Shown in pieces: positions 5,358 through 44,683 of a stretch of 64,000 nucleotides of DNA. The notes under the pieces are model-generated. The model did not search any database. It had not been told where the DNA came from and saw nothing but the letters and a program-made list of their open reading frames with translations. The stretch is taken from NCBI GenBank assembly GCA_964396185.1, contig CAYNEI010000001.1, positions 12,014 to 76,013 on the forward strand, in the 5' to 3' direction. A program made the position numbers and the translations under genes. Position 1 is the first letter of the stretch; each line of letters begins with the position of its first letter. The DNA comes from an uncultured Thermoplasmatales archaeon (lineage in GTDB: Archaea > Thermoplasmatota > SW-10-69-26).

Positions 5358-6626
5358 ATGGCAAATATCCGGGGGATGCTGATCGACCTGAACCCGTGGT
5401 GGCGAGGGCCCTACGAGCTCGAGGGGTACAGCGAACGAGACCTGCGCACCGAGCTTGAGCCGTTCATGGAGCAGCCACAGATCGTCGCCATCACCGGGCT
5501 GCGCCGTGTTGGGAAGACCACGTTGTTGCACAAGTTGGCCGAAGGCGCCGTCGATGAGGGCCCGCCCACGAAGGTGGTCTACTTCTCCTTCGATGAGCAC
5601 CACCGGGGGACCATCCGCGAGGTGCTTGACACATACCAGGACATCACAGAGGAGGGATTGGGGGAGGGCGATACGCTGGTTCTTCTCGACGAAATCCAAA
5701 AGCTGGAGGGCTGGCCGGATCAGCTCAAAACGCTCTATGACATGCACAAGGGCAATGTGAAGTTCGTGGTTTCCGGCTCCGAATCCCTGTTCATCCGCGC
5801 CGGGTCCCGCGAGACCCTGGCAGGTCGCTTGTTCGACTTTCAACTACGACCGCTGTCGTTCCGCGAGTACCTGCGATTCAAAGAGGCCGACTACGAACCC
5901 ATCGGCGTCCATGAACGAGAGCTTGAGGCCCACTTCGATGCGTTCCTGCGTACGCAAGGCTTCCCTGAACTCGTCGATGTGGAAGATCGGGCGGTCGCTC
6001 GCAAGTACCTACGCGAAAGCCTGGTGGAGCGCATCGTCTTCCGGGATCTGCCGACCTTGACCGGGCTGCAGAACATCGAGGCACTAGAGAGCGTGCTGAA
6101 CATCCTGATGGAAGAGCCGGGCCAGATCGTCAAAGTCAACGACCTGGCCGGCCAGCTGGACGTCTCGCGGAAGACGTTGTCGAACTACCTCAACTACCTC
6201 GAGCAGGCGTTCCTGTTGCGCAAGCTGTACAACTATTCCAGGAGCAGGCGTAAGGTCGAACGCAAGCTCCGCAAGTTCTACCCATCGATCCTCTCCGTCG
6301 ACCTCGTCTACCGGGACGACCCCCTGGCCCGGTCCCGGACGTTCGAGGCGATGATCGTCCACCAACTGGATGCAGAGTTCTTCTGGCGAGACCCCTACCA
6401 GCACGAGGTCGATATCGTGCTCGGGAAGGATGAGCCGATCCCGGTCGAAGTCAAATGGAGCGCTGTGAACACGGACGGGGTGGAACGGTTCATGGAGAAG
6501 TTCGGCGTGGCCCGCGGGTTCGTGATCTCGCGGGATGTCGAGCAGACCCGCGAGGTCGAGGCGGGCACGATCGAGATCGTGCCAGCTTACAAGTTCCTCT
6601 TGGGCAGTTCCCAGCGGTTTCTCTAG
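5358..6626 (+). CDS. AAA+ ATPase with DUF4143-like C-terminal PD-(D/E)xK-type domain (COG1373-like)
   Basis: Homology starts at MANIRGMLIDLNPWW (ATG 5358) within track ORF 4698..6626. Walker A GLRRVGKTTLL, Walker B VLLDEIQ, C-terminal HEVDIVL...PVEVKW. Confidence 0.8.
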   Translation: MANIRGMLIDLNPWWRGPYELEGYSERDLRTELEPFMEQPQIVAITGLRRVGKTTLLHKLAEGAVDEGPPTKVVYFSFDEHHRGTIREVLDTYQDITEEGLGEGDTLVLLDEIQKLEGWPDQLKTLYDMHKGNVKFVVSGSESLFIRAGSRETLAGRLFDFQLRPLSFREYLRFKEADYEPIGVHERELEAHFDAFLRTQGFPELVDVEDRAVARKYLRESLVERIVFRDLPTLTGLQNIEALESVLNILMEEPGQIVKVNDLAGQLDVSRKTLSNYLNYLEQAFLLRKLYNYSRSRRKVERKLRKFYPSILSVDLVYRDDPLARSRTFEAMIVHQLDAEFFWRDPYQHEVDIVLGKDEPIPVEVKWSAVNTDGVERFMEKFGVARGFVISRDVEQTREVEAGTIEIVPAYKFLLGSSQRFL

Positions 6627-6649
6627 CGTCAACGACGACAGCGGAGAAG

Positions 6650-6723
6650 AGCCACCGGAGGGATTCGAACCCTCGGCCTGCTGTTTACAAGACAGCTGCT
6701 CTAGCCAACTGAGCTACGGTGGC
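6650..6723 (-). tRNA. tRNA-Thr (anticodon UGU)
   Basis: Reverse complement folds as GCCACCG-TA-GCTC-AGTTGGCTA-GAGC-A-GCTGT-CTTGTAA-ACAGC-AGGCC-GAGGG-TTCGAAT-CCCTC-CGGTGGC-T. All stems are perfect. 74 nt, no encoded CCA. Confidence 0.9.
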
Positions 6724-34662: not shown

Positions 34663-36021
34663 TCATCCAAGCTCCGGGGTGAGATGGTCCCACGGTCGCT
34701 CTCCCCCGCCCTCGAACCCGTGGATCTGCACGCGGTGGGCGTCCTCCTTGATCCGGGCCACGCGCCAGGGATCGTCCACGCCGATCACGTAGAAATCATG
34801 GAGCTCAGCGCTCTTGGCGGCATCCTTGAGCGGACGCAACACGCGCCCTCTGCGCTGGATGTGCTGTCGCTGGCTGGTTGACGAAGCGGCGAGCACCGCC
34901 ACATCGGCGTCCGGTACGTCCAGGCCCTCGTCCAAGGCGCGCACCGCCACGAGCACGCCTCTCTCGATGGCGCGGAAGCGCTCAAGCGCGGCGTCGCGCT
35001 CGGCTTGGTCGAGCATGGAGTGGTAGACGAACGTCTCGAGCCCAGCCTTCTTGGCCGCGCGGGCCAGCTCCTCGGAGAAGGCGATCTCCTCGCTGAAGAC
35101 GATGACCTTCTTCCGGGTCATCTGCCCGACGAGCCGTTCGAAGATCTCCACCTTGCCTGCCGCGTTCTTGACCACGCGGGCCCGCTGGAAGAGGTTCTCC
35201 TGGATCTCCTCAGCCAGCTCCTCTTCGCCCTCGTTGCGCAACAGGGAGAGCAGCTCGCCCAGGTCCTCCATGGTCGGCGGGTCCTCGAACCTGGCCTCCA
35301 CCTCGGCCAGCAGCAGGTTGAGGGTCCGGCAGAACTCGTCGTACTGTTCCTGCTCGAAGGGGTTCAGGTAGGTGGAGTGGAGGTGGTAGGTGTAGCGCGC
35401 GAGGTGGCCGTCGGCCACGGCTTGGCCGAGATCGTAGGCATGAGCGACCCCTTCGAAGTAGTCGAGCACGCGGCGCGTACCGGTGGGGTCGAAGTCCCGC
35501 TCTGGCGTGGCCGAGAGGCCCAAGCGGAACGGGAAGGCGTCCACGAGCGTGCGGGAGAACTTGGGCGCGCCGGCGCGGTGGCACTCGTCCACGATGATGA
35601 GCGAGCGGTCCTGCTCGGTGACCATGGCCTCGAGCACGTCCGGGTTGCGCATGGCGGTCTGGATGGGGGTGAGCACCACCTGGGCATCCCCGACCCGCCG
35701 GAGCCGCCGCGAGCCTGCCACGCTTGCCACCTGCTCGGGTCGCAGCCCCCCGCGGTCGAGCAACTCGGCCTTCCACTGGTGGACCAGCGCCCGGGTGGGG
35801 ACGACGATGAGGGTGCGCTGCTTGCCCGCCTTGGCCCACAGCACGGCTCCGATGCCGATCAGCGTCTTGCCTGTGCCCGTGGCCAGATGCGCGATGCCCC
35901 GGCCTCCCCGGTCGACGAAGGAGCGCAAGGTCTCGCGCTGGTAGCCCCGCAGGCCAAGCTGGGTCTCGATCCGGGCCAAGCTGGAGGTGGGGGGATGGAT
36001 GGTCGATCGGCTCGCCGCCAC
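34663..36021 (-). CDS. SF2 DNA helicase (XPB/Rad25- or type III restriction Res-like)
   Basis: 452-aa ORF. Motif I LATGTGKT, motif II IIVDECH, motif III GLSATP, motif VI QRRGRVLR. Confidence 0.8.
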   Translation of the reverse strand: MAASRSTIHPPTSSLARIETQLGLRGYQRETLRSFVDRGGRGIAHLATGTGKTLIGIGAVLWAKAGKQRTLIVVPTRALVHQWKAELLDRGGLRPEQVASVAGSRRLRRVGDAQVVLTPIQTAMRNPDVLEAMVTEQDRSLIIVDECHRAGAPKFSRTLVDAFPFRLGLSATPERDFDPTGTRRVLDYFEGVAHAYDLGQAVADGHLARYTYHLHSTYLNPFEQEQYDEFCRTLNLLLAEVEARFEDPPTMEDLGELLSLLRNEGEEELAEEIQENLFQRARVVKNAAGKVEIFERLVGQMTRKKVIVFSEEIAFSEELARAAKKAGLETFVYHSMLDQAERDAALERFRAIERGVLVAVRALDEGLDVPDADVAVLAASSTSQRQHIQRRGRVLRPLKDAAKSAELHDFYVIGVDDPWRVARIKEDAHRVQIHGFEGGGERPWDHLTPELG

Positions 36022-36118
36022 ACCCGGGCAACGAGCAGGGGGGTTATCAGCCGTGGGGCCGGGTGGCCGAAACTTCTCGTGCGTGCCTGTTGATCTCCCC
36101 GATAAGAGAGGTGGCCAA

Positions 36119-36442
36119 CTACCGGGTCTGGCCTGGCAGCGGTCGGCGATGGACCCTGCCGCAGCGTAGGCACGTGGTGGAGACCTTGGCGCCGGTCACG
36201 CGGACGCGAGCGGTGCGCGAGGCGAGCAGGAAGGCCCGGCAGCCCCGGCACACCTGCGTGCGCAGCGCCGGGAGCATGGGCACGAGGTTGCGGGTTTTGA
36301 CACGCCAGGCCAGCTCGCTGTACCGGTGAGCATCGTCGAGGCGCCCCTCCAGGGCAGCCTGTTCGGCCAGGGAGAGCAAGCGCTCCACGCGCTCGATCCC
36401 GATCCGGCGACGCTCGGCCTTCGAGAGGCTCGCTCGACCCAC
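36119..36442 (-). CDS. rnp4: ribonuclease P protein component 4 (Rpp21/Rpr2 family)
   Basis: Helical N-terminus ERVERLLSLAEQAALEGRLDDAHRYSELAWRV, then zinc ribbon VCRGCRAFLLASRTARVRVTGAKVSTTCLRCGRVHRRP. GTG at 36442 chosen as start. The track ORF runs to 36562 and would overlap the upstream gene. Confidence 0.75.
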   Translation of the reverse strand: MGRASLSKAERRRIGIERVERLLSLAEQAALEGRLDDAHRYSELAWRVKTRNLVPMLPALRTQVCRGCRAFLLASRTARVRVTGAKVSTTCLRCGRVHRRPLPGQTR

Positions 36443-36536
36443 GAGCGTGGGACAGGAGGCTCGGGGATGAAGGTTTCGGCGATGGTGTGGTCGCGAATCT
36501 ACGGATGTTGAGGACGCAGGGGGTGACAACGTCGGG

Positions 36537-36812
36537 TCATGACGATGCAAGGACCCGGTCATCCTCGCTCAAGGCGATGTAGCTCTCGATGCCTCGCTTG
36601 TACCGTCGGATGATCCGCTCCATCCTCCGGTTACCCTCCCCTCGCGCCCGCCTCAGATCCCCGTCAACGAGCTCGAGGAGCTCCCTCGCCTCGTGGAGAC
36701 TGAGCGTGTCATGGTGAAACTTATTCAGGAGTTGCCTGAGACGCCGCTGGCGCTCCGAACTCGTGCCGTTAGCGGTCATCTTCGTTCTCTCCCGTATGCA
36801 GGCGGACTGCAC
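36537..36812 (-). CDS. small basic helical hypothetical protein
   Basis: 91-aa ORF in a lower-GC pocket. Arg-rich helices (SERQRRLRQLLNKFHHDTLSLHEARELLELVDGDLRRARGEG). No family recognised. Confidence 0.45.
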   Translation of the reverse strand: MQSACIRERTKMTANGTSSERQRRLRQLLNKFHHDTLSLHEARELLELVDGDLRRARGEGNRRMERIIRRYKRGIESYIALSEDDRVLASS

Positions 36813-36824
36813 ACTGTATACAGG

Positions 36825-37142
36825 TTAAGGGCCTTCATCCTCTTCAACTCCTTCGCCTTCATCATTCGGGGGGATCACCTCATCCTCGTCAACGTATGGG
36901 GCATACTCCTCTGCCTCAACGTTCATATCTTCTACCCCTAGGTTCCCTTGGGCCACATCGAGCCGCAGCTCGTGAAAAGAGCGCTCCAGCGGGTGCTGTT
37001 TCACCTCAACCGTCCTGAGACGCTCCCGGTGGCTCTTGACGCCTTCCCAGATGACGCCCGCCTGGAAGACGGTCCCCGTCCAGAACGACAGCGCGGCGAT
37101 GGCCACCGCAGCGATCGCCCACCCTAACTCAGTCGCGATCAT
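36825..37142 (-). CDS. membrane-anchored hypothetical protein with acidic tail
   Basis: 105-aa ORF. N-terminal TM GWAIAAVAIAALSFWTGTVF, C-terminal EEYAPYVDEDEVIPPNDEGEGVEEDEG. A TATA-like CCTATAAAAC lies about 30 nt upstream on the minus strand. Confidence 0.5.
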   Translation of the reverse strand: MIATELGWAIAAVAIAALSFWTGTVFQAGVIWEGVKSHRERLRTVEVKQHPLERSFHELRLDVAQGNLGVEDMNVEAEEYAPYVDEDEVIPPNDEGEGVEEDEGP

Positions 37143-37199
37143 CCGCTAGCAAGCAGCGTATGGGCCCTGCCGTTTTATAGGCGGATCTTGGAGTAGAGT

Positions 37200-37547
37200 G
37201 AAACAACCGGTTCCGGTCTGCCGGAACCTAAAAATCGTGGGTGTTGGACTGCGAGATCTTGATCCCTCCGGACACATTGCCGCAGTGGAGGTTGGGCGCG
37301 CTCCGCCCTTCGGGGGCCGGCCGGCCACGGCCGGAAGCAAGCGCCAATCAGGGCGCAACGCGATGGTTCCACCAACCCGCGAGAGCGCAGTGGAGGTTGG
37401 GCGCGCTCCGCCCTTCGGGGGTCACGCGCCCAACCTCCAGCTTCGCACCAACCAACGGCCTGGCTCGCGCTCCCGGGGCGGGCCGTTGGTTGGTGCTCGC
37501 TTCCGGAACGCGCCCTATGAGAAAGCGCCGAGGCGCGTTTCGGAAGC
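37200..37547 (+). ncRNA. candidate structured RNA or repeat element of unknown class (strand call tentative)
   Basis: A 36-nt exact direct repeat (37280-37315 and 37385-37420), each carrying a C(UUCG)G hairpin. Perfect stems: 37391-37404/37424-37437 (14 bp), 37444-37459/37480-37495 (16 bp), 37498-37513/37532-37547 (16 bp with one G.U that is valid only on the plus strand), 37208-37215/37220-37227 (8 bp). Track ORFs here look non-coding. Confidence 0.3.
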
Positions 37548-37616
37548 CGCCTCCGAGGATTGAACTCGGGACCTACTCCTTACCAAGGAGTCGCTCTACC
37601 ACTGAGCCAAGGCGGC
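37545..37616 (-). tRNA. tRNA-Thr (anticodon GGU)
   Basis: Reverse complement folds as GCCGCCT-TG-GCTC-AGTGGTA-GAGC-G-ACTCC-TTGGTAA-GGAGT-AGGTC-CCGAG-TTCAATC-CTCGG-AGGCGGC-T. 72 nt, all stems perfect. Confidence 0.9.
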
Positions 37617-37746
37617 CGGTAGGCCCGGCAATCCATCCCCCCTATTAGAGCCTTTTCCGCTGCCCGCGGGCGTGCTACGGCCTGCCTCGCTTGGTCCGTG
37701 AACCTTCATGTAGGGGGTTCCCCCTGGCCGACCGGGTGCGAGCGTT

Positions 37747-39027
37747 TTGGGCCCCGGCTTGAAGAACTTCCTCCTTCCCTCCCTGCCCTTCGCTGGGGTT
37801 CTCAGCTCGAGCCTCATGATCGCATGGGCCACCGAGGTGGCCAGCTTCTTCCTCTCCCGGGGCCTGGCCTTCGCGCTGCTGGCGCTGATCCAGGTGCTCC
37901 CGGAGTTCGCCGTGGAGGCCGTGATCACCCAGCAGGCCGCCGAGGGGACGATCCGGGCCATCGAGACGGGTGGGACCATCGCCATGGCGGAAGGGCTCGA
38001 TCTCGTCACGGCCAACTTCACCGGCGCCAACCGGCTGCTTGTCGGCCTCTTCCTTCCCATGGTCTACTTCGTGGCCGCTTGGGGGGCCCGGCCCGCCGGG
38101 ATCTCGAACCGCTCCATCGTGCTGCCGCCGGCGACCTCGCTGGAGGTCTTCGCGCTGCTGGTCCCGACGCTCTACTCGTTCTCGTTCGCCCTGCGGGGCT
38201 CGATCACCCTGATCGACGCCGGCGTGCTGACCCTGATGTACGTCGTCTACCTGGTGCTGGCCTACAAGATGCCCACCGAGGACCACGACGCCAGCGAGCT
38301 GCCCTTCGTGCCTCGTTGGATCTACAACCAGCCCGCCCGGCTGCGCACGACATTCATCGTGGCGCTCTTCGGGGGCGGTGGGGCGCTGTTGTTCCTGAGC
38401 GTGCACCCCTTCTACGAGAACACGATCCATCTGGCTGCAGCCCTGGGTCTGCCGGCCTACTTCCTGTTCCAGTGGATCGCGCCCCTGCTCTCGGAGTCCC
38501 CGGAGCTCATCACGGTCTCGTACTGGGCCAAGACCGGGCGCGCGCCCCTGGGCGTGACCAACGTGGTCTCGAGCAAGATCAACCAGTGGACCCTGCTCAT
38601 CGCCATGATCCCCGTCGTCTATGCCAGCGTGCTCTGGAAGGCTGGCTTCGGCCTATCCGCGCTCCCCCTGGGCAACGCCCAGCAGGTCGAGGTGCTCCTG
38701 ACCGCCGCCCAGGGCCTCTTCGCCGTGGCGTGTCTGATGACGCTGACCCTGGAGCGGTGGCAAGCATGGACCCTGCTGGTCCTCTGGGCCGTCCAGGCCG
38801 CTGATCCGCTCTTCGAACCCTTCCTGGTGGGCTGGCTGCCCAGCCCCTTCCCCGCCGGCCTGGCAAGCGGCTCGCTGGTGCGTGAGTGGTTCACGCTGCT
38901 CTACCTGGCCCTGACCGTGTTCGTGCTGGTCAAGGACCGCCGACGGCTGCGGGCCATCCCGAGCATCCAGCGCGTCTGGCGCGAGCACGTCCGCGGGTCC
39001 TCAAGCAGGGAGGAGCAAGGGGCGTGA
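37747..39027 (+). CDS. CaCA-like cation/proton antiporter-type membrane protein
   Basis: 426-aa polytopic ORF with two alpha-repeat-like motifs (VLPEFAVEAV and SESPELITV) in the N- and C-terminal halves. Confidence 0.5.
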   Translation: MGPGLKNFLLPSLPFAGVLSSSLMIAWATEVASFFLSRGLAFALLALIQVLPEFAVEAVITQQAAEGTIRAIETGGTIAMAEGLDLVTANFTGANRLLVGLFLPMVYFVAAWGARPAGISNRSIVLPPATSLEVFALLVPTLYSFSFALRGSITLIDAGVLTLMYVVYLVLAYKMPTEDHDASELPFVPRWIYNQPARLRTTFIVALFGGGGALLFLSVHPFYENTIHLAAALGLPAYFLFQWIAPLLSESPELITVSYWAKTGRAPLGVTNVVSSKINQWTLLIAMIPVVYASVLWKAGFGLSALPLGNAQQVEVLLTAAQGLFAVACLMTLTLERWQAWTLLVLWAVQAADPLFEPFLVGWLPSPFPAGLASGSLVREWFTLLYLALTVFVLVKDRRRLRAIPSIQRVWREHVRGSSSREEQGA

Positions 39028-39036
39028 TCCCAGGGC

Positions 39037-39537
39037 TCACGGGTCGGTGACGTGGTAGGCCACGCGAGCCAGGCCCGTGGTCCCCGCACCGGGCAAGCAG
39101 TCGATCTCGTCTGCGTTCTCCAGGGAGTTGACCACCAGGCGCAGCATGGTCGCGCCCTCAGGGATCTCCAGGGTCGCCTCGCCACAGAAGCTCCCGGAGA
39201 CCAGCGCCGATCCGGCGCCGCCGAAGAAGCTCTCGTCGAAGTGGTCGGGGTCGTGGAAGGAGTAGAACACGGAGACTGCGGAGCTGGCCTGGTCCTCGAT
39301 GGTGACCTCGAGCTCGTCGTAGACGTCCACTTGGCCATCGTCACGGAGGTCGAAGCGCATGGACCCGACGACGTAGATCGTCTCGCCACCGGCATCCACC
39401 GTCGTGATGGAGCTCGTGCCGCTGGCGCCGACGATGTAGACGCGCTCCTCGACCTTCTCGAGCTGCGCGGTCGCACTCCCGGGAACGAGCAGGCCAAGCA
39501 CCAGGCAAGCAGATAGCAGCAAGGGTGTCAAGCGCAT
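39037..39537 (-). CDS. secreted hypothetical protein
   Basis: 166-aa ORF. Signal peptide MRLTPLLLSACLVLGLLVPGSATA. Acidic beta-rich mature part with two Cys. Confidence 0.6.
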   Translation of the reverse strand: MRLTPLLLSACLVLGLLVPGSATAQLEKVEERVYIVGASGTSSITTVDAGGETIYVVGSMRFDLRDDGQVDVYDELEVTIEDQASSAVSVFYSFHDPDHFDESFFGGAGSALVSGSFCGEATLEIPEGATMLRLVVNSLENADEIDCLPGAGTTGLARVAYHVTDP

Positions 39538-39710
39538 AGGTCAGCCTCCAGGCCTGGGTAGCCCGTGGGCGCCGGATGAGCGGGTCTGTGTCCCTGGAGG
39601 GGGTGGAGACACGGCGTAGTTTCAGCGACCCCACGGAGGGGATCGCTCGTCGGGAGCAGTAGGACGGCCAGCACGGGAGGCTTCAAGCCTGGGGGCCCCA
39701 TGACCCATGG

Positions 39711-40484
39711 ATGGCGTCCTCTCAGGCCAGATCGTTCGAGGATGAGCTCGCGCTCGTGACCGGAGCCGCCTCAGGCATCGGGCGCGCCACCGCGCAGCTA
39801 CTCGCCCAGCGCGGCGCCCACGTGGTGCTCGCTGATCTCGACGAGCCCGGCCTCGAGGAGGCGGTCGAGGCCATCGAGCAGGCAGGGGGAAGCGCTGAGC
39901 TGGCGGTGCTGGACGTGCGCGAGACGCAAGCCCCTGGGCGGCTTGTCGATGGCATCGTGGATGCGCACGGCTCGCTCTCCCTGGCGGTCAACGCCGCCGG
40001 CGTGCTTGGCCCGCTCGCGCCCAGCCATCGTGTCACCGAGGAGGCCTGGGAGCACGTGGTCTCCACGGACCTCACCGGCCTCTGGCGGTGTCTCAAGGCC
40101 GAGCTCGATGCCATGGCCACCTTGGGGAGGGGCAGCGTGGTCAACGTGGCCAGCGTGGCGGGCCTTGTCGCCTTCCAGGGCGCCCCGGCTTATGCGGCCA
40201 GCAAGCATGGCGTGGTGGGGCTGACCAAGACGGCCGCCGTGGAGCTCGCCCCGAGCGGGGTGCGCGTCAACGCGGTATGCCCCGGTGTCGTGGACACGCC
40301 CATGCTCGAGGCCTCCCTGGCCGAGGCGCCGTTCACCGAGGATGAGCTGGCCCAGGACCACCCTCTCGGCCGCATCGCCGCACCGGACGAGGTGGCCACG
40401 GTCATCGCGTTCCTGCTCTCGGACGAGGCCTCGTTCATCACGGGTGCTGCCGTCCCAGTGGATGGGGGCCTCACGGCGCGTTGA
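39711..40484 (+). CDS. short-chain dehydrogenase/reductase (FabG-like 3-oxoacyl reductase family)
   Basis: 257-aa ORF. TGAASGIGRA cofactor motif, NAAG, catalytic S...YAASK, PGVVDTPM. Confidence 0.85.
   Translation: MASSQARSFEDELALVTGAASGIGRATAQLLAQRGAHVVLADLDEPGLEEAVEAIEQAGGSAELAVLDVRETQAPGRLVDGIVDAHGSLSLAVNAAGVLGPLAPSHRVTEEAWEHVVSTDLTGLWRCLKAELDAMATLGRGSVVNVASVAGLVAFQGAPAYAASKHGVVGLTKTAAVELAPSGVRVNAVCPGVVDTPMLEASLAEAPFTEDELAQDHPLGRIAAPDEVATVIAFLLSDEASFITGAAVPVDGGLTAR

Positions 40485-44608: not shown

Positions 44609-44683
<75 letters not shown>

Follow-up and report, generated by a model that had tools for sequence, protein, structure and literature searches.

A structured stretch behind tRNA-Thr(GGU) in a Thermoplasmatales archaeon is one copy of a repeat family, probably a palindromic mosaic of gene ends

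The window analysed in this study is the whole stretch of 64,000 nucleotides taken from contig CAYNEI010000001.1 (positions 12,014 to 76,013) of an uncultured Thermoplasmatales archaeon, and its subject here is the strongly structured array at 37281-37547, which abuts the 3' end of a tRNA-Thr(GGU) gene. The first-pass annotation had suggested that this region may be a new non-coding RNA (ncRNA), a palindromic element resembling a MITE (a miniature transposable element with inverted repeats), or a relic attachment region. When the array is read on the plus strand, its modules follow each other in the order R1 (a half-H3), modA, linker, H3, H2, H1 and tRNA 3' end:

37281-37316, plus strand: R1, a half-H3 consisting of the H3 5' arm and the inner C(UUCG)G hairpin; first copy of a 36-nt repeat, running straight into modA.
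37314-37371, plus strand: modA, a two-hairpin module of 53-58 nt; R1 covariance model 77.2 bits, E 5e-19.
37372-37385, plus strand: linker between modA and H3, ACCAACCCGCGAGA; counterpart of YCCGATYCG..GC in other copies.
37386-37441, plus strand: H3, consisting of R2 (second copy of the 36-nt repeat) and its sole complement; outer stem of 15 perfect bp around an inner UUCG hairpin.
37445-37496, plus strand: H2, a 17-bp hairpin, CACCAACCAACGGCCUG / CGGGCCGUUGGUUGGUG; from an inverted-repeat search and a covariance model.
37499-37547, plus strand: H1, a 16-bp hairpin with one G.U pair (arms 37499-37514/37532-37547), formed by the tRNA trailer and an inverted copy.
37545-37616, minus strand: tRNA-Thr(GGU), CCA not encoded; Rfam RF00005, 69.1 bits (ARAGORN bounds 37542-37617).

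The exact direct repeat CGCAGTGGAGGTTGGGCGCGCTCCGCCCTTCGGGGG occupies 37281-37316 and 37386-37421, identical at 36 of 36 positions with a period of 105 nt, and the match stretches to 47 nt at 89% identity; the repeat and its period had been reported correctly but both starts one nucleotide off. It is there because R, the 5' half of H3, is present two times, once fused to modA and once closed as the H3 hairpin. Each copy holds the C(UUCG)G hairpin that had been described (GCCC-UUCG-GGGG), and the sole complement of GGAGGTTGGGCGCG was confirmed at 37425-37439, where it forms the H3 outer stem with 37391-37405. The arms of H2 (37445-37467/37474-37496) match over 23 nt at 87%, and in their core 17 pairs, one of them G.U, follow without a break; the 3' arm of H1 covers the last three nucleotides of tRNA-Thr on the Rfam bounds, on which the overlap given earlier holds. 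The long helices and the 8-bp hairpin of the first-pass annotation are therefore all present, with 15 bp perfect, a 17-pair core, 16 bp and 8 bp. In the window copy of modA, P1 is CCGGCC/GGCCGG and P2 is GCGCC/GGCGC, with the conserved linkers GGAAGCAAG and GAUGGUUCC, and when H3 and H2 were scored jointly with the R2 covariance model they gave 96.3 bits (E 1e-16). The plus strand folded at -204 kcal/mol, compared to -165 +/- 5.7 for shuffled sequences (z = -6.8, 0 of 100 shuffles as good), which bears out the description of the region as hyper-structured; the minus strand folded at -194.9 kcal/mol (z = -5.9). When 35000-40000 was searched against Rfam 15, which includes RNase P, the signal recognition particle (SRP) RNA, 5S, riboswitches and ribozymes, only tRNA was found at E<=10, in agreement with the earlier inspection by eye, and at 10 paralogous loci again only tRNA was found at E<=1.

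When 37150-37547 was compared by BLAST with its own genome (an assembly of 3.17 Mb, about 67% GC and 89.5% complete), dozens of partial matches were obtained. An iterated nhmmer search with 37305-37380 as query converged on a 53-nt unit with 46 copies, and a covariance model built from 30 of these raised the number of modA copies to about 51. The consensus is CCGGNCC-RSCA-GGNCCGG, AAGCAAG, GCGCNC-NYCA-GNGCGC and AAGNCGGUGGUUCC, that is, two hairpins with conserved single-stranded joins. In P1, 96.7% of the cells were paired and six of the seven pairs had changed on both sides, three pairs of P2 had changed in the same way, and every shuffled and slid control scored far lower; one-sided changes were found in 14 cells and two-sided changes in 81. 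When compensatory changes were looked for in two registers of a suspected pseudoknot between the P1 loop and the 3' tail, none was found. The context of the copies was judged from crude calls of open reading frames (ORFs) combined with codon-position GC, and on this crude calling none of the 46 copies lay inside an ORF. Eleven copies lie downstream of a tRNA 3' end at no more than 260 nt from it, all of them convergent with the tRNA. The contexts of modA are many and unrelated, including the inside of other hairpin cassettes, and no consistent promoter was present upstream of the copies.

Within long hairpin cassettes whose arms consist of octamer-like repeats (CACGGAG and CACGAAGG types), modA lies just inside the left arm, as in the present genome (G000) at C19:24992-25280, C24:23050-23340, C20:22066-22356 and C32:18172-18463; it is thus an insert common to several hairpin elements that are otherwise unrelated. 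At G000 C22:32647-33393 two units of about 250 nt that contain modA are inverted relative to each other and together make up a very large palindrome, with divergent genes on either side. At 2783-2899 of the window a variant type of modA-like unit (AACCCAGGCGSNC...) occurs twice in tandem in degenerate form, with scores of 31.5 and 17.6 bits by the R1 model. A derivation of modA from SRP RNA, suggested by a likeness of CCAGGNCCGGAAGSAAGC to SRP helix 8, was rejected because the helix 8 fold cannot accommodate P1, the hairpin that covaries; the genuine SRP RNA of this genome, with which modA was compared by eye, is at C18:34850-35164.

When the 330 nt downstream of every tRNA gene were folded, the same series of hairpins was seen behind many tRNA genes, and profile searches then defined three hairpin families:

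H1, 1-6 nt from the tRNA 3' end, convergent with the tRNA: overlaps the tRNA end; loop often GCGCUAUCGGAGA.
H2, 48-58 nt from the tRNA 3' end, convergent with the tRNA: CGAACG...NGAUC...CGUUCG.
H3, 104-111 nt from the tRNA 3' end, convergent with the tRNA: 16-bp outer stem around CCUCCGCCC-UAUC-GGGGGUCGG.

The H3-H2 block has 17 copies in the genome, and 13 of these stand behind tRNA genes in a single orientation and at fixed distances, counting the copy on C181, where the tRNA is truncated at the contig end. The family stands behind about one third of the tRNA genes of this genome. In an alignment of 12 H3-H2 sequences 95.7% of the cells were paired, 25 of the 37 pairs had changed on both sides and the loops were conserved; as in modA, two-sided changes (88 cells) far outnumbered one-sided ones (6 cells). 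The block behind tRNA-Gly(UCC) on C16 aligned to the window block over 205 nt at 72%. At C5:33665 the apex of one H3 is inverted within its stem and the flanks keep their orientation, which is a flip at the level of DNA. Elsewhere in the window a weak match to the R2 model (14.5 bits) was found at 6518-6656, together with a small hairpin whose end is formed by the tRNA-Thr(UGU) 3' end; folding there is not significant (z = -1.6), and nothing comparable lies behind tRNA-Glu(UUC) at 44609. Behind tRNA-Thr(CGU), at G000 C17:17600-18053, hairpins of a different type form three 134-nt units in tandem, each of which repeats the inverted trailer GACCGGCAAGAAAG, and an H3-H2 block follows.

The proximal hairpin, H1, pairs the terminal sequence of the gene behind which it stands with an inverted copy of that sequence. 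In about 19 of the 41 real tRNA genes an exact inverted copy of 9-21 nt of the tRNA tail and trailer was found 16-33 nt downstream, forming H1, which is expected by chance in less than 1% of cases. H1 is common to isoacceptors, as in three tRNA-Leu genes and two adjacent tRNA-Arg genes. The same arrangement was found behind a gene similar to a cytochrome oxidase subunit (C5:77844-78608), whose coding sequence holds the 5' arm of H1, 20 nt ahead of its stop codon; the 3' arm comes after the stop and is followed by H2, H3 and a partial modA, and loci in relatives repeat this arrangement with an H1 arm in the coding end of a protein gene. Since at C5:77844-78608 one arm is part of the coding sequence, it is the distal arm that must be the copy. 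Hairpins of the H1 type were present at 17 of 2137 protein-gene ends (0.8%), compared to 2 of 1730 intragenic controls, and H1 as a general terminator architecture was set aside because at 0.8% of protein-gene ends it is not a genome-wide feature. An origin of H1 from a retro-element with a site like a primer-binding site was also rejected; on inspection the junctions after the discriminator base read CTC, CTT or TCC and not CCA.

A model of the H3-H2 block found copies in four of six genomes of one Thermoplasmatota family, 17, 5, 11 and 13 in number and belonging to three genera, and none in 195 other genomes sampled from the phylum, where 19 first-look candidates were scored per genome and weak copies could be missed. 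In the relatives the copies stand behind tRNA-Gly, tRNA-Glu, tRNA-Val or protein genes, often in tandem with a spacing of 137-182 nt, and in three other genomes 32 of the 37 H3-H2 pairs showed two-sided changes in an alignment that was fitted to the model. Of modA there are 51 copies here and three true copies in G003, which belongs to another genus, and the remaining 19 genomes of the class have none. When the orthologous tRNA-Thr(GGU) genes were compared, hairpins were missing in G001, H1 and H2 were present in G002, and in G003 an H3-like hairpin was present in addition to these two; the stem sequences of these hairpins differ and the 3-nt anchor in the tRNA is constant. A scan of viral contigs with a modA pattern gave no match, and the 53 matches in metagenome contigs all scored at most 25 bits with the model, which amounts to chance. 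The genes that flank the module copies, read by eye only, appear to be ordinary housekeeping genes. In the literature on repeats behind tRNA genes, on repetitive extragenic palindromes (REPs) in archaea and on archaeal termination we found no description of an archaeal mosaic linked to tRNA genes.

The neighbours of the array are archaeal genes, namely an Rpr2/Rpp21 RNase P subunit (36119-36562), an XPB-like helicase and a PGF-CTERM cupredoxin. On the minus strand tRNA-Thr is followed by the structured stretch, a run of five T, a TATA-like box, two small orphan ORFs of lower GC, Rpr2 and XPB. Three short features lie between the array and these ORFs:

37230-37234, minus strand (the tRNA strand): T5 run, a candidate terminator from its sequence, being the first run of at least four T downstream of tRNA-Thr (+307 nt) and lying just past the array.
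37208-37228, no strand assigned: 8-bp hairpin GGTTCCGG-TCTG-CCGGAACC (arms 37208-37215/37221-37228), not a member of the repeat family; its genome-wide matches are weak (E 0.002-0.12).
37172-37180, minus strand: TATA-like box CCTATAAAA, a putative promoter about 35 nt upstream of the ATG of ORF105 (37142), outside the repeat family.

The two orphan ORFs, between the array and Rpr2 (36537-37142, minus strand), have a GC content of about 59%, compared to 67%. The first encodes 105 aa with a hydrophobic N-terminal helix and an acidic tail, and the second a basic protein of about 79-91 aa; searches of Pfam, PHROG and NCBIfam gave one weak match below the cut-off and otherwise none. In G003 the orthologous locus lacks this pair and has Rpr2 directly next to the tRNA. 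Furthermore, this genome (36119-37617) and G003 (L021 5545-7447) have tRNA-Thr(GGU) and its hairpin trailer in opposite orientations with respect to Rpr2-XPB, the side of the tRNA that faces Rpr2 being the 3' side here and the 5' side in G003. A second tRNA-Thr(GGU) at G000 C1:256843-256917, considered as a sign of duplication, turned out to be a false positive of ARAGORN, for it does not align with the real gene and is situated in unrelated sequence.

The way in which the window unit was put together can be read in part from the other copies. The fusion of R to modA recurs behind tRNA-Gly on C16 and in G003, and the junction between half-H3 and modA (...CCGCCC-TTCG-GGGG|CCGG...) is conserved in the latter. 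By eye, one modA copy of G003 appears to be enclosed in an H3-like hairpin, with the inner UUCG hairpin on one side of it and the 3' arm on the other. The layout behind tRNA-Gly on C16 is the same as in the window, but there the sequence of the upstream half-H3, GGAGGTTGGGCGCC, is not that of the full H3 arms, GGACATCGAGCGCC, and no complement of it was found nearby. The two mutually exclusive pairings proposed for the window are therefore not a conserved feature of the family. The simplest reading is that the window unit would consist of an H3 that carries modA and a plain H3, and that the two copies of R were kept or made identical by recombination.

The first-pass annotation had itself named many dispersed copies as the sign of a repeat element, and this is what was observed, with about 51 copies of modA and 17 of H3-H2; therefore, of the three options that it had raised, the palindromic repeat comes closest. 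The region is an instance of a repeat family and not a dedicated RNA gene. As to the nature of this family, we consider it moderately probable that 37281-37547 is one copy of a lineage-restricted mosaic of gene-end palindromes similar to REPs and to bacterial interspersed mosaic elements (BIMEs), with hairpins formed at the DNA level, arms maintained by template switching, spread without a transposase, and use as a terminator or insulator. The modules would be stacked at gene 3' ends, usually those of tRNA genes, with order and orientation fixed (H1 next to the gene, then H2, H3 and optionally modA), and would act as hairpins or cruciforms in DNA or as hairpins in read-through transcripts. Complementarity of the arms would be kept by intrastrand template switching and not by stepwise compensatory mutation, and the modules would spread by copy and paste with no transposase of their own. 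The covariation that the first-pass annotation had hoped for does exist, but it lies among paralogous repeat copies and is almost devoid of one-sided (G.U) intermediates. The number of G.U pairs on the strand opposite the tRNA compared to the tRNA strand was 11 against 4 in H3 and 10 against 5 in H1, and the two strands compared as 31 against 31 in modA and 17 against 14 in H2; the comparison of G.U with A.C showed only a weak excess on the strand opposite the tRNA, and the claim that the fold makes sense on the plus strand alone is weak, since over the whole family the counts differ little between strands. The scarcity of one-sided changes, the small strand difference in G.U and the flipped apex agree no less with DNA arms that are corrected against each other by intrastrand template switching than with selection on RNA.

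The hairpins may serve as terminators or insulators at the ends of tRNA genes in this genome of 67% GC, from which T-run terminators are nearly absent. Only 4 of the 42 predicted tRNAs have at least four T directly at the 3' end, and most have no such run within 400 nt. In the GC-rich archaeon Haloferax volcanii hairpins can terminate transcription, and one hairpin tested there stopped 59% of it in a reporter (PMC7237163). Considering the scarcity of T-runs at tRNA ends together with termination by hairpins in Haloferax, it is therefore plausible that H1-H3 are possibly hairpin terminators or insulators. In the window, the T5 run at 37230-37234 is a candidate terminator because it is the first such run behind tRNA-Thr and lies just beyond the array.

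Several points weigh against this interpretation. The slight excess of G.U opposite the tRNA strand in H3 and H1 hints at RNA from that strand. The conserved unpaired stretches, GGAAGCAAG and GGUGGUUCC in modA and the apex CUAUCGG, speak for an RNA tertiary structure or for a protein that recognises them specifically, and are left unexplained by pure template switching. The analysis identified no enzyme that would mobilise the modules. If the hairpins are transcribed together with the tRNA, their pairing with the 3' strand of the acceptor could hinder folding of the tRNA. Finally, only a subset of the first-look candidates was scored per genome, so the absence of the family elsewhere is not strict.

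A different explanation, which we hold to be unlikely but still deserving of attention, is that the modules are functional RNA domains, modA being a structured motif akin to TwoAYGGAY RNA and H1-H3 being parts of the tRNA 3' trailer or of an antisense RNA acting on tRNA 3' ends. Such domains would account for the strong covariation and the highly conserved unpaired linkers, and both the slight G.U excess and a better folding energy on the strand opposite the tRNA, seen for H3, H1 and modA and not for H2, point in the same direction. The TATA-like box could also fire towards the array, and the array could be co-transcribed with tRNA-Thr because no run of at least four T occurs on the tRNA strand before +307. 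There is also a precedent in a two-hairpin RNA that is tied to REP arrays (bioRxiv 10.64898/2026.09.22.753630). However, this explanation is at odds with the lack of a consistent promoter upstream of modA copies, with contexts that are many and unrelated and include other hairpin cassettes, with the near absence of one-sided G.U intermediates, and with the suspected pseudoknot, which has no compensatory change. Moreover, the H3 apex was inverted once and the unit was not lost, and the occurrence of modA, abundant here, sparse in the sister genus and absent elsewhere, is the behaviour of a repeat.

It is also conceivable, and to our mind about as unlikely as RNA domains, that the arrays come from an undescribed way of building cassettes at gene ends, in which the last 13-21 nt of a tRNA, or now and then of a protein gene, are copied in inverted form as an anchoring hairpin and H2, H3 and modA are then added in order. 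The cassettes would then not be junk. They would be the work of a dedicated, unrecognised enzyme that reads the apex motifs (CUAUCGG) and modA, or else they would yield RNAs antisense to tRNA 3' ends that have a regulatory or defensive role.

Rather improbable is a further explanation, in which the modules, like the tRNA-linked repeats of E. coli, are small passengers of tRNA-targeted site-specific recombination that have no integrase themselves and were stacked by one encoded elsewhere, H1 being part of the core of an attachment (att) site. The strong link to tRNA 3' ends and the frequency of tandem units agree with it, as do direct copies of the tRNA tail at the unit borders of other arrays in this genome (23 nt twice for Pro-UGG, 22 nt for Met, 28 nt for Ser and 19 nt twice for Lys). 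The window unit, however, has no such copy: when the last 24 nt of tRNA-Thr were looked for in the 745 nt downstream, the best direct match was 6 nt and the best inverted one 7 nt, both below the shuffle mean of 7.9. The modules are also found behind protein genes, whose coding ends are copied in inverted and not in direct form. The neighbouring ORFs are Rpr2, the XPB-like helicase and the two orphans, and in three libraries none of the adjacent ORFs matched an integrase family, so the earlier suggestion of a relic attachment region finds no support here. To our knowledge, core sites do not look like H1, with its arms of 13-21 bp and loops of 13-22 nt. Readings as integron attC sites or as the omega-RNA of IS200/IS605 find little to go on either, there being no R'/R'' core and no Y1 transposase, and the neighbours, read by eye, look like ordinary housekeeping genes.

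Lastly, the reading that the first-pass annotation favoured, in which the plus strand carries one novel ncRNA gene, dedicated to this purpose alone and able to switch between pairings much as a riboswitch does, has very little left in its favour and is largely refuted by copy number, for although the fold is exceptional, two identical 5' arms compete for one 3' arm and Rfam has no match, all the segments from 37281 to 37547 belong to multi-copy families, the competing arm has no partner in the C16 paralogue, and the minus strand folds nearly as well as the plus strand.

Repeat families of this kind are a common source of false calls of novel ncRNAs, and the present case shows how the two can be distinguished. 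The unusual traits of the family are the tie to tRNA ends, a first hairpin made from the inverted terminus of the gene, concerted change of stems around fixed loops, and the absence of an accompanying transposase. If the hairpins do terminate tRNA genes in a genome nearly free of T-runs, this would bear on how transcription ends in GC-rich archaea, and if an enzyme makes them it would represent a new kind of site-directed DNA copying.

When the family is compared with known systems, a MITE in the strict sense does not appear to fit, even though the idea of a palindromic element does: no shared terminal inverted repeats were seen at the unit borders, the inverted repeats found being hairpin arms or short pairs of the size expected by chance, and the 36-nt repeat, which flanks modA plus linker, greatly exceeds a target-site duplication in length and is no longer the same in the paralogue on C16. 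The tRNA-linked repeats (TLRs) of E. coli, which comprise the RtT repeats of tyrT (Rfam RF00391) and rrA/rrB/rrF and are defined by an 18-19-bp copy of the tRNA 3' end (PMC8144298), are similar in that they are non-coding, directly behind tRNA genes, often in tandem and of unknown origin, and other arrays of this genome end like TLRs in direct tRNA-tail copies of 19-28 nt. The window unit differs from them in having no direct tail copy, in that the copy of the gene end is inverted as a hairpin, and in that its modules also occur behind protein genes; RF00391 gave no match in 35000-40000 at E<=10, and its sequence and fold are unrelated. The nearest counterpart of modA is TwoAYGGAY RNA (RF01731), a two-hairpin motif of unknown function that reaches dozens of copies in some genomes and holds a fixed position by Pseudomonas REP arrays (bioRxiv 10.64898/2026.09.22.753630). 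Both are small and multicopy and consist of two successive hairpins with loops that are similar within the motif, but modA has NNCA loops (RSCA, NYCA) closed by C-G instead of AYGGAY, lacks a basal stem, is archaeal and has no Rfam match. The terminators mapped by Term-seq in Haloferax volcanii (PMC7237163) are similar to H1-H3 as hairpins at gene ends in a GC-rich archaeon with scarce T-runs; unlike H1-H3, they form no repeat family and are not specific to tRNA genes.

The closest parallel is found in the REP/BIME elements of Enterobacteria and Pseudomonas, some of which, as REPINs, are associated with RAYT transposases (PMC3116915, PMC3733652); in archaea REP-like palindromes have been counted by RepRanger (PMC12306157). 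The family described here differs from REP/BIME elements in several respects. No RAYT (Y1/HUH transposase, PF01797) was found in any of the six family genomes by a search that was positive in six known control genomes. The GTAG/CGTC tag is missing from H2, and at the 5' flank of H3 the sequence was GCAG(T/G)GG in 4 of the 12 aligned copies and unrelated in the other 8, GTAG occurring only in C5_33665, which is outside the alignment. The stems are longer (15-17 bp) and change in a paired fashion with conserved loops, there is a strong preference for tRNA genes, and the proximal hairpin is derived from an inverted copy of the end of the neighbouring gene. Like REP/BIME elements, however, the family consists of GC-rich extragenic palindromes in tens of copies, joined into mosaics of stereotyped order; it is situated at gene 3' ends or between convergent genes, is restricted to one lineage, and has similar proposed roles in termination and transcript protection. 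Thus, of the systems compared, it is REP/BIME mosaics that the family works most like.

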